Positions 2,729-64,000 of a stretch of 64,000 nt of DNA are shown piece after piece; position 1 is the first letter of the stretch; each line of letters starts with the position of its first letter. A program made the translations under genes and the position numbers. The DNA lies in contig CAWKFY010000019.1 of NCBI GenBank assembly GCA_963848815.1, positions 13,286 to 77,285 of the forward strand, in the 5' to 3' direction. The DNA is from an uncultured Chloroflexia bacterium. GTDB taxonomy: Bacteria > Chloroflexota > Dehalococcoidia > GIF9 > UBA5629. The notes beneath the pieces were generated by a model. That model saw only the letters and a program-made list of their open reading frames with translations, was not told where the DNA came from and ran no database searches.

Positions 2729-3478
2729 ATGCTTAAAGCTGTTTTATTCGATATCGATAACACGCTGATCCTCTTTGACGAAGCCAGGTTCCTGCGAAAT
2801 TATTTTCCCCTGCTGTCGGTCCGGTTTACCGATATCATTCCCGCAGACAGTATCGCTGACAGATTGATGCAGGCAACCCTGATAATGCACCAGAACGACG
2901 GTTCCATGACCAACCGGGAAAGGTTCACTGCCGCTTTCTGCCGTGACACTGATTGGGACACGGATGAGATCTGGTCACGCTTTGAAAAATTTTATCTTGA
3001 GGACTGGGACAAGTTAGGGGACATGGTAAAGACACCCGATCATGTGCGTGACGTTCTTTCCGAGATCGCCCGCAGGGGTCTTAAAACCGTCATCGCTACC
3101 AACCCCATCTTTCCGCTGATAGCTCAGGCAAAGAAACTTGAATGGGCCGGGCTGGGAGATATCGATGCGGCCCTCATCACCAACATCGATAATATGAGCT
3201 ATTGTAAGCCCCAGTTGGGATATTTCCGGGAGATTTGCAGCAAAACCGGCTTGAATCCCGAGGACTGTCTGATGGTGGGCGACGACCCTGCCAACGATAT
3301 GGTGGCAGCCAGGATAGGCATGAAGACATTCCAGACTTGCGACGGACTTGCTTACCAGGAGATACCCAGGGAAGTTAGCAAAATAGTCACGGGCAACAAT
3401 ACGGATGGGATACCGCCCGCCGATTTCCAGGGTCCGCTATCCTGCGTGACGCAAGCCGTGGACACCCTCCTCAAATAA
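2729..3478 (+). CDS. HAD-superfamily hydrolase
   Basis: Motif I (FDIDNTL) at the N-terminus, and a later GDDPANDM motif. Confidence 0.8.
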   Translation: MLKAVLFDIDNTLILFDEARFLRNYFPLLSVRFTDIIPADSIADRLMQATLIMHQNDGSMTNRERFTAAFCRDTDWDTDEIWSRFEKFYLEDWDKLGDMVKTPDHVRDVLSEIARRGLKTVIATNPIFPLIAQAKKLEWAGLGDIDAALITNIDNMSYCKPQLGYFREICSKTGLNPEDCLMVGDDPANDMVAARIGMKTFQTCDGLAYQEIPREVSKIVTGNNTDGIPPADFQGPLSCVTQAVDTLLK

Positions 3479-3574
3479 GACAACCTCATCGGAATCCATT
3501 GATACCATTCTGCTTTTCATGTATAGTGGTACTGCTCTTAGCTTTAGAGCGAATTTAATCAGGGTTTAGGAGGC

Positions 3575-4927
3575 ATGATGACTGAAGATTATGCAGAGAA
3601 AAGCTTCTGGCTGGGCAACTCAGGCAGCTACCAGGCCAATCCACCGTTGCAAGGAGACCTTAAGTGCGATGTCGCAATTGTGGGAGGCGGATTTGCCGGG
3701 ATTGCCACCGCTTATTACCTCAAGAAAGCGCAACAGTCGTTAAAGGTGGCCGTGCTGGAGAGCAACGTGATCGGCTATGGGGCATCGGGCCGCAACGCCG
3801 GCTTTGCCATGACTACCTTCGGCCTGATGATGTCGATTACCAAGATGCTGTTCGGGGTCGAGAGGACCAAGCAGTCGCACCGCTATATGGAGAGGGCGGT
3901 GGACCTGGTGGGCGAACTGGTAAAGGAACATAAGCTGGATTGCGAATATGAGCTTCCGGGCTTCCTGCGTATCGCTACGACGCCGGCATATGTAAAACGT
4001 ATTAAGGAGGAGGTAGACCTGGTCAAGGAGTTGGGGTTGACGGGCGTGGACTGGATAGAAGCGGATGAGGTCCAGAAACGCGTCCGCTCGCCGCAATATA
4101 TGGGGGCTTGGTGGGAGCCAAGGTGTGCATTGGTCAACCCGGCCAAACTGGCGCGTGAGATGAAGAGGGTGGCTTTGCAATATGGGGCGGAGGTTTACGA
4201 GATGACCCCTGTGGAAGAAATAAAACGGACTTCGCAGGGCTTCACGCTTAAGACGCCCGGGGGGACCGTGTCTGCGGATAAGCTGGCCCTGGCCACCAAT
4301 GGCTACTCACTGGCTATCCCCGAGCTGAAAGCCATGCAACAGCCGGTGTGGACCTATATCATACTGAGCGAGCCCCTCAAAAAGGAGCAATTGGATGAGA
4401 TAGGCTGGCAGGGCCGTGAGGGTATAGAGGACTACCGCAACCTGGTGCATTACTACCGGCTGACGCCGGACAACCGGCTTCTGATGGGAGGCCGCGATAT
4501 CATCGTGAAATACGGCGCAAATATGGACAACGATATGAACCCGCTGATCTTCTCTCAGCTTGAGCAGGATATAGCCGATTTCTATCCCTGCCTCAAGGGG
4601 CTGCAAATAACCCACCGCTGGGGCGGCCCCGTCTCAGTGCCCATGGATATGGTGCCGGCGCTGGGATACCTGGGAGACAAGCGGGCCGTATACAGCCTGG
4701 GATGTATGGGCCACGGCGTTTCGTTGACGCATCTTAACGGCGAAGTGATGGCCGACCTGCTGATGGAACGCAAATCGGAATGGACGGAGTGTTTCCCTGT
4801 GAACCGCAAGGTATTCAAGTGGCCTCCCGAGCCCGTACGGTTTGTAAGCGAGATGGCCATCCTGAGCTACCTTCACGCTGAAGATGCCTGGCTGGAAAGG
4901 AAAGGGCTTGGACCAGTAAAAAAGTAG
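3575..4927 (+). CDS. FAD-dependent oxidoreductase (DAO family)
   Basis: Rossmann dinucleotide motif VAIVGGGFAGIATAYYL; GGAGG-like SD sits upstream of the ATG; 450 aa. Confidence 0.85.
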   Translation: MMTEDYAEKSFWLGNSGSYQANPPLQGDLKCDVAIVGGGFAGIATAYYLKKAQQSLKVAVLESNVIGYGASGRNAGFAMTTFGLMMSITKMLFGVERTKQSHRYMERAVDLVGELVKEHKLDCEYELPGFLRIATTPAYVKRIKEEVDLVKELGLTGVDWIEADEVQKRVRSPQYMGAWWEPRCALVNPAKLAREMKRVALQYGAEVYEMTPVEEIKRTSQGFTLKTPGGTVSADKLALATNGYSLAIPELKAMQQPVWTYIILSEPLKKEQLDEIGWQGREGIEDYRNLVHYYRLTPDNRLLMGGRDIIVKYGANMDNDMNPLIFSQLEQDIADFYPCLKGLQITHRWGGPVSVPMDMVPALGYLGDKRAVYSLGCMGHGVSLTHLNGEVMADLLMERKSEWTECFPVNRKVFKWPPEPVRFVSEMAILSYLHAEDAWLERKGLGPVKK

Positions 4928-55011: not shown

Positions 55012-55100
55012 ATGGCGGAGGGGGCGGGATTCGAACCCGCGTTAGCACGAAGCTAAAACGGTTTTCAAGACCGTCACCATCGGCCGCTCGGTCACCCCTC
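55012..55100 (-). tRNA. tRNA-Ser (anticodon UGA)
   Basis: Reverse complement gives GGAGGGGTGACCGAGCGGCCGATGGTGACGGTCTTGAAAACCGT...GGTTCGAATCCCGCCCCCTCCGCCA. It has a 7-bp acceptor stem, anticodon loop CTTGAAA, a long variable arm, discriminator G and an encoded CCA. It closely resembles E. coli tRNA-Ser(UGA). Confidence 0.85.
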
Positions 55101-55152
55101 CATGCTGTTTTGGGTAGTTAAAAATCAGGCGCTCGATGCGCCCGGGAAATGC

Positions 55153-59452: not shown

Positions 59453-61696
59453 CTAGTAAGAGTTCAGCATGGTCTCTATTTCACTGAGGCCACCGAATTC
59501 GCCGTCCTGTATCTTCTTGATCGTCCCTCCTTCATCGAGGAAGAACGTCCGCGGTATGGTATTGATGTTGTAGAGCTCCCCAACCTGGCCGGTATCGTCA
59601 ATGGGCACCGTGAGTGTCAATGAGTTCTGGCTGATATAGCCCCCTATCTGCGGACCGGTAGGTGATCCAAGTATGTTCGAATGAACACAGATGATGGGCA
59701 GGTTGGGGTGGTTTACATGCATCTGCTGAAGGGCCGGCATCTCCTCCCTGCAGGGCCCGCAGTTGATCGACCAGAAGTTAAGAATTACCTTGCTTCCGCG
59801 AAAGCTGGCAAGGTTGAGGTTAGTGCCGTCGGTAGTCACCAGGGTGAAATCAGGAGCGAGCTGGCCGATTTGCGTCCCGGAGGCTGCCGGCGTTGTGAAA
59901 GTGGTGTCCACCGAGGAGGCCTCGTTGCCTGAGGAATCCCTGGACGTGACCTTGAAGTGGATGGTGGCCGTCAGAGGCAGCATATTCAGGGTTACGCTGT
60001 GGTCCGTGACCAGGGTTGTATCGGTCTGCGCCGGCTGTACCGTGCCGTAAGTGGCAGATGTGCCGTAGGCGACCTGGCTGGTGGACGGCTTGTCGGTCGT
60101 CCACTCGACAGTGGCGGTGGCGGCGGTTGAGCTGCTGACCAGGTTCATCACGGTTGGACCAGTGATCTTGGGCGGGGTCTTATCGACGATGGCGGTAGTC
60201 TGAAGGTCATTAGTCGCTTCCTGGCTGCCCTGGGCCGCATTGATATCTGAACTTAGCCCCGATAGTACCGTAATATGATACGATTTGCCGGGCTGCAGGT
60301 CGGACAGCTTCACGCTGTGATCGGTTACCAGTGCGTCATCCCTGGCGGTCTGGCAGTCCGTGCCGCCTTCGAGGCAATAAACTACACGGCTATTGGAACG
60401 CACGTCCGTTTTCCAGTTCACCGTGGCGCTGCTCTCAGTGATATCGCTGTATTGGATGGCCGAGATGACCGGGTTTGCTGCGGTAGCTACCGTGGTGTTG
60501 GTGGATGTCGTCGCATGGGGAGCTACGACCTGCTGGGGTGTTTGAAGCTGGTCCATGACCAGTACCACGACGATTATCACCACGCCGACCATGGCCAGGA
60601 GGGCAAGCAGGATAGGCATGGGAGATTTCTTTTGCCGGTGCGCCCTCTCGGGACGCTGTCTTGGCTCTTTTTGCGGCTTCTCCCTGGCCTTCTTGCGTTC
60701 AGGGCGAGGCCTTTCCATCACTTCGGGGAAGGGGGCCGGCTGGGCCATTTCAAAAGGCTGCACGGCAGGCCGCCCATAATACTGCTCAGCGGGCTGCGAA
60801 TAAGCATTGGGCTGGGGCATGGGCTGTGACACAGTGGATACCCTGCTCTTATAATATTCTTCCGCCTTGAGCATGGGGTTACTTCTCTGGTAGGGTATGC
60901 GGTTGTTGCCGCAATTAGGGCAGATCTTGCTGCGGTCGGGGACCGGGGCGCCGCAACTGGGACAGGTACGAAGATCGCCGCCTTCAGGCGGGGCAACGAA
61001 CTCCTGCTGCGGGGCGACAAACTCCTGCTGCGGGGCGACAAACTCCTGCTGCGGGGCCTGGCTCATTTGAGGGTAAATCTGCTCGGGTGGAGTATGGCGG
61101 ACCGGCACATCCCTCGTCGGTGCATTCGAGCCGCGTTCCATCATACGTCTGTAAACTTCGCCTTCAAACTTCTTATCTTTCGTCGGTGTAAAGCCTTCGG
61201 TAAGCTTTGCCCCGCCTCCGAACTTTCCATGGATCGGGCACAAGCTGGAACCCGGCGGGATCGGCGTGCCGCATTTCTGACAGACTTTCTGTTGAGTAGG
61301 CGCTTCAGGTTCCGTCCGCGAATATGCGGAAACGGGTTCGCCGTGCGCCGGCTTCATAACACCGTAGCCCTGCTGAGGGGTCTGGGTAACCAGGTCGCCC
61401 AACCTGCCACAATAAGGGCATTTCTTCATGCCGGGATCTATCTTCGAGCCGCAATTGGAGCAGTAGGTCTGATTTACGGCTGTGCTGCTTTGTGCGCTGG
61501 GTGGAATATATGTGGTAGCGGCAAATTTGCCCGGCTTGAAGCCCAGGTCTTTCTTGCCGCAATGAGGACAGATGCTGGCGCTGGGTGACTCGATTACCAG
61601 GTGGCAACTGGGACAGAATCTGGCGCCGCATTTCTGACAGGTGGTGGCGTTAGACTCGTTGATATCATGACATCTCTGACAGATTATACTGGGCAT
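59453..61696 (-). CDS. Multidomain membrane protein: cytoplasmic tandem zinc ribbons, Pro/Gln-rich repeats, a TM helix, 2x fibronectin-III-like domains and a TlpA-like thioredoxin (CGPC) domain
   Basis: Repeated CxxC-x10-20-CxxC zinc ribbons, the hydrophobic segment MPILLALLAMVGVVIIVVVLV, FN3-like repeats (ATVNWKTD..., ATVEWTTD...) and a C-terminal WSINCGPC redoxin motif. Confidence 0.75.
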   Translation of the reverse strand: MPSIICQRCHDINESNATTCQKCGARFCPSCHLVIESPSASICPHCGKKDLGFKPGKFAATTYIPPSAQSSTAVNQTYCSNCGSKIDPGMKKCPYCGRLGDLVTQTPQQGYGVMKPAHGEPVSAYSRTEPEAPTQQKVCQKCGTPIPPGSSLCPIHGKFGGGAKLTEGFTPTKDKKFEGEVYRRMMERGSNAPTRDVPVRHTPPEQIYPQMSQAPQQEFVAPQQEFVAPQQEFVAPPEGGDLRTCPSCGAPVPDRSKICPNCGNNRIPYQRSNPMLKAEEYYKSRVSTVSQPMPQPNAYSQPAEQYYGRPAVQPFEMAQPAPFPEVMERPRPERKKAREKPQKEPRQRPERAHRQKKSPMPILLALLAMVGVVIIVVVLVMDQLQTPQQVVAPHATTSTNTTVATAANPVISAIQYSDITESSATVNWKTDVRSNSRVVYCLEGGTDCQTARDDALVTDHSVKLSDLQPGKSYHITVLSGLSSDINAAQGSQEATNDLQTTAIVDKTPPKITGPTVMNLVSSSTAATATVEWTTDKPSTSQVAYGTSATYGTVQPAQTDTTLVTDHSVTLNMLPLTATIHFKVTSRDSSGNEASSVDTTFTTPAASGTQIGQLAPDFTLVTTDGTNLNLASFRGSKVILNFWSINCGPCREEMPALQQMHVNHPNLPIICVHSNILGSPTGPQIGGYISQNSLTLTVPIDDTGQVGELYNINTIPRTFFLDEGGTIKKIQDGEFGGLSEIETMLNSY
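60995..61057. repeat. 3 tandem copies of a 21-bp in-frame repeat (GACAAACTCCTGCTGCGGGGC), encoding (VAPQQEF)3
   Basis: Read directly from the sequence; the first copy is imperfect. Confidence 0.7.
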
Positions 61697-61859
61697 TAAT
61701 TATTCCATGGGTGATAACGTAAAATTTAATATTAAAGTTAAGACAGAATATTACATATGTCAAGTCTGAAGAGACGCTCACGCATTGAAGACGGCTGTTT
61801 TAAAAGAACATTGCAGTATAGCACAACTCAGTAAAGTGGGGAATCAATAAGAGTCGAGC

Positions 61860-63404
61860 GTTACTGTGACTGATTTGTCGGTCTTGAGTTAGAGAGGCCT
61901 TGTAAAACATTATATCGCTATCCTGGTTAGAGATTTCAATATTTCAACCCAAGGACGGGCTGCATGTGGGCCAGATATCGCTGGCATTCCAACATTGAAA
62001 TAACTCGTGTAATCATATTTTATTGTACGATCGAGCACTCTCCTTACTTGTTTTTCCGGCATTTTTATAGATGTAGTTTCAGCGATGCGGAAGCACAGGC
62101 GATCCGCCAGAGTCCCTTCACGTATACTGATTCTCAGCCAGAGCATCCGGCGTATTCCCTGGCGCGACCAACTCATGCCCTGGTTCTTCATCCTTCGTAC
62201 GATCAACTTGTCAATATTTCCCTCGATAGCCCCTGTTCTTCGTAAGGTAATTCCCTGTTGTCCCATGCTTTCCCGATAATCCTGCAATCCGGAGGCATTG
62301 GAACTGATATATTTGATCACCTGCCTGATGTCTTTGGCCTTATCGTCTGGCGCCCGGTCTACCGCTTCTTTGAGCTGCTTAAGAGCGGCATCATGTTGGC
62401 CACAACTGCAATGATATTGAACCGACCGTAAGATAGCTCGATCATGCTTCAGTGCATGACAAAGAGCATGGTTGAGGTGATATCGGCATAGCTGATATTG
62501 GCCTCCGAAATAATCAACACCTTCTTTGATCCATGTTGCGCCGTCTCCACCGATGACGTATTGCGTCCCACCAAGATCGTATTTCTGGTGCAGTTTTAAG
62601 GCCATTCCTGTCCAGAATCGATCAGTGCTTAATATGTCTGCATAAAGGGTCTTATTGACCGTGCTGTAACGGTCTTTGCCTACTTTCCGCCAGCTCTCAT
62701 AGGCAATGCCCAGCTTTACCTCAGCCCTACGTGCCGTTTCCCTTTGCAAGGGTAGCACAACGCCGTCCGCCTCGATAATCAGACAGCTCGCCTTCCTGCC
62801 TTCAGTCTGTTTCAACTCGCCAGTATCTTCAAACCAAGCCGCACTACGATCTGCATCATCTTGACTGTCGGCAATAGCCAATTGGACTAACCTGTGAATG
62901 GTTCTATAAGAAAGGCCGATAGAAGTGGTTCTGTTTAGTACCTCAGCGCTTCTGCGGAAAGGCATCTCGGCCGCCAACCCGCATGCCAGCTCTTTCACAG
63001 CCAAGGTGGTGTGACGGTATTTGCCCATACCCATCAATTCATCCAGCGGATATTGATATTTCCCGTCTCGCCCTCGATATTGTCTCCTGGTAACCATGAT
63101 CGGTCCAAGCCTGGTCCGATACCAGGTGCTTCGCTTATGAGCGACTACTAAATCAGCAGGCCTATGCTGTTGTATCAGCGAGTCGATCTGCTCAAGTACG
63201 TTTCCAAATGCCTTACGTGCGCATTCAACTGCTTTGTCGAATAAATCCTTCTCCATTGAGACTACGATCTGTTTGAGTTCCTCAGCGTTTTTGGTTAGAC
63301 TGGTTTTCAAGAGATATCTCCTTTATAAATTTATTGGTGGTAGATTTATTTTGTGAGGTCTCTCTTGCTTTTTGCAACCTGACCGACAAAACTGTCACTG
63401 TATC
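61860..63404 (-). mobile_element. ISLre2-family insertion sequence (1545 bp) with 24-bp imperfect terminal inverted repeats (20/24 match) and 9-bp target-site duplication GAGTCGAGC
   Basis: IRL 61860..61883 GTTACTGTGACTGATTTGTCGGTC. IRR 63381..63404 is its reverse complement with 4 mismatches. Direct repeat GAGTCGAGC at 61851..61859 and 63405..63413. Confidence 0.8.
61910..63310 (-). CDS. ISLre2-family (UPF0236) transposase
   Basis: 466 aa; GGDGATWIK...LCRYHLNHAL matches the family GDGAxWI / FHL signature. Confidence 0.85.
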   Translation of the reverse strand: MKTSLTKNAEELKQIVVSMEKDLFDKAVECARKAFGNVLEQIDSLIQQHRPADLVVAHKRSTWYRTRLGPIMVTRRQYRGRDGKYQYPLDELMGMGKYRHTTLAVKELACGLAAEMPFRRSAEVLNRTTSIGLSYRTIHRLVQLAIADSQDDADRSAAWFEDTGELKQTEGRKASCLIIEADGVVLPLQRETARRAEVKLGIAYESWRKVGKDRYSTVNKTLYADILSTDRFWTGMALKLHQKYDLGGTQYVIGGDGATWIKEGVDYFGGQYQLCRYHLNHALCHALKHDRAILRSVQYHCSCGQHDAALKQLKEAVDRAPDDKAKDIRQVIKYISSNASGLQDYRESMGQQGITLRRTGAIEGNIDKLIVRRMKNQGMSWSRQGIRRMLWLRISIREGTLADRLCFRIAETTSIKMPEKQVRRVLDRTIKYDYTSYFNVGMPAISGPHAARPWVEILKSLTRIAI

Positions 63405-64000
63405 GAGTCGAGCATGAACTCTATTTCGCCGGGGCTGGTGAACATACCCTGCTGTATATTGTGTATTACACCGTTTTTATCGATGAAGTAAGTCTTGGGA
63501 ATGCTGGTGATACCGTACTCGTTAAAGACGTTGTCATCGGAGTCAAGCAGGACCGTGAAATTGAAATTGTTTTGCGCCATAAAAGCTCTTATTATGCTCT
63601 CATCGGATTCGCTGCCGGCTACGGTCAAGACCATGACATCAGAACCGCTGCTGTATTTAGTCCACACCGTCTGCAGATGAGGGAGTTCGATTTTGCAGGG
63701 TGTGCACCAGCTCGCCCAGAAATTGAGGATCACTTTTTTGCCGCGGAATTGGCTGAGGGAGACATATTCGTTTTGCAGGTCCTTGAGCTGAAAATCGGGC
63801 GCCACGCTGCCGGAGTAGGGGGCGGTATTGGTAACGGGCTGGGTCGTAAAGGTGCGGTCGTCCAGGTTGCTGACCGTATCGCCCGCAGCGTCGGTCGAAA
63901 ATACCTTATAGTGATAGCGTGTATTGGCGCTAAGCCCATTGATATAGATACTGTGATCCAACGTTTGTTGCAGCACCTGCGTCGATGGGAAAGGCAGCGA
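63395..64000 (-). CDS. FN3-like plus TlpA-like thioredoxin domain protein (paralog of 59453..61696); 5' partial at window edge, 3' end altered by the IS insertion
   Basis: WASWCTPC redoxin motif. The last codons (...LDSIQ*) are supplied by the target-site duplication and the IS inverted repeat. Confidence 0.75.
   Translation of the reverse strand, partial: SLPFPSTQVLQQTLDHSIYINGLSANTRYHYKVFSTDAAGDTVSNLDDRTFTTQPVTNTAPYSGSVAPDFQLKDLQNEYVSLSQFRGKKVILNFWASWCTPCKIELPHLQTVWTKYSSGSDVMVLTVAGSESDESIIRAFMAQNNFNFTVLLDSDDNVFNEYGITSIPKTYFIDKNGVIHNIQQGMFTSPGEIEFMLDSIQ

Follow-up and report, generated by a model that had tools for sequence, protein, structure and literature searches.

A complete insertion sequence (IS) of the ISLre2 family sits in the last codons of a TlpA-like redoxin gene in the DNA analyzed here, a 64,000-nucleotide stretch of contig CAWKFY010000019.1 that we call the window. 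Very probably, this element transposed to a position 16 bp upstream of the -35 position of a putative promoter belonging to the next gene on the same strand, which encodes a 747-amino-acid (aa) paralogue of the interrupted protein. The directly observed evidence comprises the element itself, its ends and target-site duplication, the reading frame restored upon its removal, IS-free orthologous loci, and promoter targeting across its clade. In the mechanism we propose, a Mutator-like DDE transposase would have made a 9-bp staggered cut at the chromosomal site and inserted the 1545-bp IS in the fixed orientation of the family, with the right end toward the promoter of the 747-aa zinc-ribbon/Fn3/redoxin gene, whose promoter block it presumably recognised. 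The 9-bp target would have fallen on the upstream redoxin codons Leu-Asp-Ser because the promoter begins right after the redoxin stop codon, which places a cut 7–15 nt upstream of the -35 position on those codons. The outcome would be a duplicated GAGTCGAGC, a terminal Tyr replaced by Ile-Gln and a stop read from the left IS arm, and a downstream core promoter left untouched. The insertion site follows the promoter-targeted, oriented rule of the family, a point that goes beyond the initial annotation of the locus, and this rule would explain why the end of the redoxin gene was hit.

The interrupted gene and the insertion sequence

The initial annotation had read the locus as an ISLre2-family element with an intact transposase open reading frame (ORF), bounded by 24-bp imperfect inverted repeats and a perfect 9-bp direct repeat, that altered the C-terminus of a TlpA-like protein and separated two formerly adjacent tandem paralogues; the comparisons below bear out these points. 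With the IS present, the redoxin gene ends ...GEIEFMLDSIQ*, and its stop codon (63395-63397) lies within the IS arm. The IS accounts for the final two codons and the stop (63395-63403), its left inverted repeat (IRL) supplying the G of the Ser codon and then Ile, Gln, and the stop. Deletion of 61860..63413 in silico followed by translation of the minus strand returned ...GEIEFMLDSY*, with the duplication copy at 61851..61859 encoding L-D-S before the insertion (GCTCGACTC, minus strand). The downstream paralogue ends ...SEIETMLNSY*, and all 13 retrieved homologues of the upstream protein (311-347 aa long and 56-73% identical over the part lying in the window) end ...(L/I)(D/N/E)SY; the Tyr that is terminal in every one of them is swapped for Ile-Gln in the window.

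Two related Dehalococcoidia-type metagenome contigs carry the locus without the IS. In L022 (ENA ERZ25039519), 152 bp separate a 191-aa gene call with the C-terminus MLDSY from the next gene, whose 751-aa product shares 68% identity with the 747-aa protein of the window; L020 (JGI 3300038417) has the same gene layout with a spacer of ~150 bp. The excised window aligns gap-free across the junction to both contigs (...GAGTTCATGCTCGACTC(T/C)TATTGATTC...), which indicates a clean insertion with no deletion. Before the insertion the two paralogues, 38% identical over 186 aa, lay 147 bp apart.

Scored on its C-terminal 201 aa, the portion lying in the window, the redoxin product matched the Pfam families AhpC-TSA (3.7e-27, 95 bits) and Redoxin (1.8e-22, 80 bits), and it carries the active-site motif WASWCTPCK, of the WCxPC type. 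It scored below the NCBIfam cutoffs for both ResA (117.6 bits vs 170) and TlpA (53.5 bits vs 230), so 'TlpA-like', the label of the initial annotation, or 'redoxin-domain protein' is the right naming level for the interrupted gene. NCBI names its homologues 'TlpA disulfide reductase family protein'.

The limits of the element were set by homology. BLASTN of the 1545-bp element against five relatives (L002, L001, L004, L005, L103; 70-89% DNA identity) ran from position 1-2 to 1545 and no further, with unrelated flanks beyond, so that homology stops exactly at 61860 and 63404; the relatives' elements measure 1544-1580 bp. The two 24-bp arms match at 20/24 positions, and the tips of the element read 5'-G...C-3'. 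A degenerate pattern made from both arms has only two sites in the window, against 0 expected from shuffles, and no second copy of the element was found in the 64-kb window. The initial annotation had considered that other copies might show different termini; instead, the tips are conserved across ~84 loci, even at 45% transposase aa identity, and ~90 relatives in all have these termini. Across the ~84 loci, the sequence of the left end is GAT(A/G)CAGTAACA...TTGTCGGT and that of the right end ...ACCGACAA.....GACAGTAAC, the clade consensus for IRL being gATaCAGTAACA...TTGTCGGT. The right inverted repeat (IRR) faces the promoter of the downstream gene, and its terminal C, a described trait of ISLre2-family ends (PMC3942029), is conserved. 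At repeat position 2, 71/74 distinct pairs of inverted repeats have A in the left arm and T in the right, and position 6 shows the same left/right split in 57/74. The imperfection of the repeats does not reflect decay; the clade conserves the asymmetric mismatches at positions 2 and 6.

The 9-mer GAGTCGAGC is perfect at both sites, extends on neither side, and has no third occurrence on either strand of the window. Nine relatives (L004, L006, L031, L035, L057, L091, L098, L103, L104) have perfect 9-bp duplications as well, which with the window copy makes 10 such insertions, and the duplication of L002 matches at 8/9; among unrelated flank pairs, a 9/9 match has a frequency of ~0.0004. C61859 and G63405 are complementary and allow an alternative parse with 25-bp repeats and an 8-bp duplication, which we judged less likely given the relatives' perfect 9-bp duplications. 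The closest relative fetched, L103 (ENA ERZ25039519 contig_40912), shares 89% DNA identity and has the perfect duplication CTCGCCAGG. The gene call for its transposase is just 368 aa long, probably owing to a frameshift. L103 and the IS-free locus L022 (contig_28280) come from the same sample.

Only one long ORF lies between the inverted repeats. Its product scored 246.2 bits on the NCBIfam model NF033529 (ISLre2 family transposase; cutoff 200) and 6.8e-51 against Pfam PF06782 (UPF0236). It remained below the cutoffs of the ISKra4 (115.6 bits, cutoff 205), ISH6, and Mycoplasma integrative and conjugative element (ICE) transposase models, and no Pfam or NCBIfam match to IS256 was returned; assignment to ISKra4, ISH6, or IS256 was rejected on these profile scores. 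Alignment with 23 homologues (46-85% identity) showed no variation at D182 and D256 and at least 90% conservation of E363; these DDE residues were assigned by position and conservation rather than through an IS256 alignment or a structure. D256 and E363 are 107 aa apart, and the motif C275-R-Y-H278 (C-x2-H) begins 19 aa after D256. Both features fit the Mutator-like ISLre2 layout, in which an insert of 99-138 aa separates the second D from E and a C/D(2)H motif lies 11-19 aa past the second D (PMC3942029). The ORF is full length, since nearly all homologues are 466 aa long.

Beyond the transposase, the element has the inverted repeats of 18-39 bp with a terminal cytosine, the 8-9-bp duplication, and the single ORF within ~1.5-2 kb that characterize the family, to which transposition through a circular intermediate also belongs. 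The nearest relatives occur in Dehalococcoidia/Chloroflexota metagenome-assembled genomes (MAGs) and in sediment and groundwater-type metagenomes; the best match among GTDB representative genomes is 85% identical, and NCBI already labels the Dehalococcoidia protein P0111 an ISLre2 family transposase. The element is a complete, unnamed, and divergent member of the known ISLre2 family.

In a more distant clade (L058-L102, for example L066, L079, and L084), with transposases 45-50% identical, the right end reads ...TTGACAGTAAC; its -35 hexamer is perfect, points outward, and lies 5 nt from the tip. The left end of this clade has TACAGT. Speculatively, if the two ends met at a circle junction across a spacer of 9-10 nt, the transposase of that clade would gain a junction promoter. 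The window element reads GTCACA (4/6) at the spot of this hexamer.

Table 1. Features of the insertion locus, with positions in the window; slashes mark element boundaries
Feature	Position	Strand	Basis
Complete ISLre2-family insertion sequence, 1545 bp	61860..63404	- (transposase strand)	BLASTN homology limits
Transposase gene, 466 aa, TTG start preceded by AAGGAG	61910..63310	-	ORF and profile search
Left inverted repeat (IRL), transposase 5' side, GATACAGTGACAGTTTTGTCGGTC on minus strand	63381..63404	-	Arm comparison
Right inverted repeat (IRR), transposase 3' side, ...GACCGACAAATCAGTCACAGTAAC on minus strand	61860..61883	-	Arm comparison
Target-site duplication GAGTCGAGC, copy adjoining the right IS end (IRR) and the promoter	61851..61859	.	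Repeat search
Target-site duplication GAGTCGAGC, copy still within the redoxin gene	63405..63413	.	Repeat search
TlpA/ResA-like redoxin gene, 3' part (N-terminus beyond the window end)	63395..64000	-	Pfam, motif
Orphaned original last codon TAT (Tyr) and stop TGA	61844..61849	-	Excision; gap-free alignment with L022 and L020
Putative sigma-70-type promoter of the 747-aa gene	61815..61843	-	Conservation and clade profile; sequence prediction only
Downstream paralogue, 747 aa	59453..61696	-	ORF and Pfam
Occupied junctions: ...ATGCTCGACTC/GATACAGTGAC... and ...CACAGTAAC/GCTCGACTCTTATTGA...			
Reconstructed empty junction: ATGCTCGACTCTTATTGATTCC			In-silico excision

Promoter targeting in the clade

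According to Guerillot et al. (PMC3942029), insertions of ISLre2 and TnGBS elements lie on the upstream side of sigma-A promoters, 15-17 bp from the -35 box, and IR-right is the end next to the promoter; the orientation is set by the asymmetry of the repeats, and 8-9-bp duplications are generated. A signature of the transposase, a conserved Asp located between domains N1 and N2, is linked to this targeting (PMC3942029). For the clade of the window element, we examined 68 non-redundant right-end flanks of the collected relatives and required at least 5/6 matches to call a box. TTGACA was found at offset 16 in 28/68 flanks and at offset 17 in 4, compared with a mean of 0.41 and a maximum of 4 at offset 16 in shuffles. 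TATAAT appeared at offset 39 in 23/68 and at offset 40 in 9/68. A full promoter at offsets 15-17 was present in 42/68 flanks vs 0-2 in any other three-offset window, and the left-end flanks of the relatives gave no promoter signal. The position matrix reads T16 T17 G18 A19 C20, G37, T39 A40 ... T44. Insertions of this clade share one orientation, in which the right end lies 16 bp upstream of a sigma-70-type -35.

The window copy shares T16, T17, C20, and G37 with this profile, has T36, and carries TATACT, a 5/6 -10 box, at offsets 39-44. It belongs to a group of 12/68 flanks in which a weak -35 is paired with a good -10 located at offsets 38-41; a TG-extended -10 like that of the window copy occurs in several of them. 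The same +16 register at sites with a very poor -35 is what would favor the idea that the clade finds promoters through bound RNA polymerase or sigma factor rather than through the -35 sequence, a proposition we hold to be possible, though doubtful. Were it true, metagenomic insertion sites would provide a base-precise map of housekeeping promoters in uncultured Dehalococcoidia, and the conserved asymmetry of the left and right ends would be the handle that sets the orientation.

On the minus strand, the layout of the window is IRR / GCTCGACTC TTATTGA / TTCCCC / 17 nt / (TGC)TATACT. The putative promoter of the 747-aa gene thus starts immediately past the redoxin stop codon (TAT TGA TTC CCC); its -35 position (61843..61838), which begins 16 nt from the IRR tip, reads TTCCCC and is separated by a 17-nt spacer from the extended -10 TGC TATACT (61823..61815). 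The promoter block GTTGTGCTATACTGCAAT is conserved in the IS-free loci L022 and L020, where the -35 position reads TTCACC. This cross-genome conservation, together with the clade-wide positional profile, is the basis of the promoter call and suggests that the TGnTATACT block works as a promoter.

A second strongly conserved intergenic block (CTTGACATATG.AAT.TTCTG.CTTAACTTTAATATTAAAT; 61722-61765, minus strand), also found in L022 and L020, lies past the predicted promoter and ahead of the start codon. It includes a perfect TTGACA (61763..61758) and an AT-rich palindrome (61722-61739), has no Rfam match, and could be a second promoter, an operator, or an element of the 5' untranslated region.

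The initial annotation also raised the possibility that the insertion uncouples transcription of the paralogues. This is possible, but the case is weak, as the downstream gene has a conserved putative promoter of its own that the IS spared: the core promoter is intact together with the 16 nt that precede it, and IS DNA replaces sequence only from about -52 upward. No intrinsic terminator was predicted in 61600-63600, and the transposase is co-oriented with both flanking genes, so read-through from the upstream gene would now presumably traverse the IS and not stop there. Given the spared promoter, the lack of a predicted terminator, and this co-orientation, any uncoupling is probably of little consequence.

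Alternative explanations and genomic context

Several observations weigh against the reading of a recent, promoter-targeted insertion and are taken here with the alternatives they favor. An old, fixed, and possibly immobile element, a long-standing resident of the lineage, is an unlikely explanation in our view. The nearest empty sites come from relatives of other species, whose orthologues are just ~68-73% identical in protein, and no same-species empty site was found when the JGI metagenome collection was searched for the exact 24-mer of the reconstructed site. The perfect 9+9-bp duplication, at 18 bp, carries almost no clock information and is too short for dating. Great age is nevertheless hard to reconcile with a full-length ORF that keeps all invariant family residues, and with an orphaned TAT-TGA and a 9-bp duplication that are both unmutated. 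Three database proteins at least 98% identical to the transposase (one identical, one with 1 aa different, and one with ~9 aa different) lie on three different large contigs of 168, 83, and 180 kb, which suggests recent copying; these near-identical transposases are known only as database proteins, and their presence in one shared genome is unproven. Transposition with 9-bp duplications has been demonstrated for ISGka4 of the same family (PMC8024623). Where the initial annotation had called the insertion clean and probably recent, the gap-free alignment upholds clean, and recent is no more than plausible; that this copy is still active is likewise plausible, judging from its intact sequence.

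An untargeted element that landed at random, so that its position at a gene end and upstream of a promoter is coincidental, appears very unlikely. The hexamer at the -35 position of the window, TTCCCC, is poor (3/6), and a simple promoter/terminator scan of 61600-63600 called no minus-strand promoter, having failed to flag 61815..61843 because of this weak -35. In addition, 7/68 of the relatives' flanks have neither box at threshold at the expected offsets. Chance, however, does not account for the concentration of full promoters at offsets 15-17 in 42/68 flanks, for TGnTATACT at the modal offset 39 and TT at 16-17 in the window, or for a promoter block conserved in two IS-free relatives, and promoter targeting is a published property of the family (PMC3942029).

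A perfect duplication is found in only ~12% of the metagenomic copies, another point that counts against the targeted insertion; most of the other copies lie on contigs barely larger than the IS, with flanks that are unreliable and may be mixed by assembly. Relatives of the IS often assemble in this way or with mismatched flanks, and an assembler could have joined unrelated contig ends through a multi-copy IS in the window too, an artefact to which we give almost no weight, since the same 9-mer stands on both flanks, and joining these recreates the conserved C-terminus and colinearity with two independent IS-free loci, which a chimera would not do. Many relative contigs have almost exactly the length of the IS (1522-1700 bp), and in two comparisons (L105 vs L104, and L030 vs L031/L032) the copies have the same right flank and differ in the left, or vice versa. 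Such copies point either to rearrangements mediated by the IS or to contigs joined in assembly through a multi-copy repeat.

The 747-aa protein has an unusual domain architecture, with several N-terminal zinc ribbons, a hydrophobic/transmembrane stretch, two domains resembling Fn3 and the N-terminal domain of purple acid phosphatase, and a C-terminal redoxin with CGPC. Its gene contains a 21-bp x 3.3 tandem repeat (60988-61057) that encodes APQQEFV three times. L022 also has a third zinc-ribbon/Fn3/redoxin paralogue, which lies upstream of the orthologous pair and appears spread over three short gene calls (2796-4219), probably as a result of frameshifts in that assembly; in L020 the paralogue at this place is intact and 495 aa long. 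With this third paralogue, the organisms of L022 and L020 carry at least three clustered redoxin genes of this type next to seryl-tRNA synthetase.

Rfam and tRNA scans found nothing within or adjoining the element. The sole RNA gene detected in the window is a tRNA-Ser (anticodon TGA; 55013-55101, minus strand), and the remaining context is ordinary for a chromosome, with oxidoreductases, glycosyltransferases, a biotin carboxylase, and this one tRNA-Ser.

Significance and comparison with known systems

For annotation, the C-terminus of the redoxin gene in the window should be recorded as IS-derived, with ...DSIQ replacing ...DSY. More broadly, the promoter-targeted and oriented insertion described for ISLre2 and TnGBS of Firmicutes is also the rule in a highly divergent clade of Chloroflexota-type MAGs, and insertions of this clade are useful as promoter pointers in organisms that lack transcription data and in uncultured Dehalococcoidia. 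Knowledge of how ISLre2-type elements work is unchanged by these results; the insertion is real but ordinary.

The ISLre2 family (ISfinder), defined by Guerillot et al. 2014 (PMC3942029) with a prototype from Lactobacillus reuteri, is the closest known system. The window element agrees with it in the single Mutator-like DDE transposase of ~450-470 aa, the ~1.5-kb length, the 24-bp repeats with terminal C, the 9-bp duplication, and the oriented insertion that puts IR-right on the promoter side, 16 bp upstream of the -35. It differs in that its transposase shares only 25-28% aa identity with the named Firmicute members found on plasmids (e.g., ISGsp3-like elements), and in its hosts, Chloroflexota/Dehalococcoidia-type MAGs of a phylum outside the ISLre2 list of the 2014 survey (PMC3942029). 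ISGka4 from Geobacillus kaustophilus HTA426 belongs to the same family and makes 9-bp duplications, and its experimentally observed transposition shows that family members can be active in vivo (PMC8024623). Its host, by contrast, is a thermophilic Firmicute, and it is distant in sequence, Geobacillus plasmid relatives being ~25-27% identical to the window transposase.

The TnGBS ICEs of Streptococcus agalactiae (p-MULT 3) share the transposase family, the targeting of sites 15-17 bp upstream of the sigma-A -35, and the fixed orientation. They are large conjugative elements with transfer and replication genes, whereas the window element is a bare 1.5-kb IS with one ORF. The ISKra4 group (p-MULT 4), first found in Ktedonobacter (Chloroflexi), has a related Mutator-like transposase and occurs in Chloroflexi, and some of its members also insert upstream of sigma-A promoters. 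ISKra4 repeats are nearly perfect and its insertions occur in both orientations, in contrast to the conserved asymmetric repeats and single orientation of the window clade. The IS256 family, finally, belongs to the same superfamily and resembles the window element in its 8-9-bp duplications and presumed circular intermediate, but IS256 elements insert with no promoter preference (PMC3942029), unlike the clade described here.

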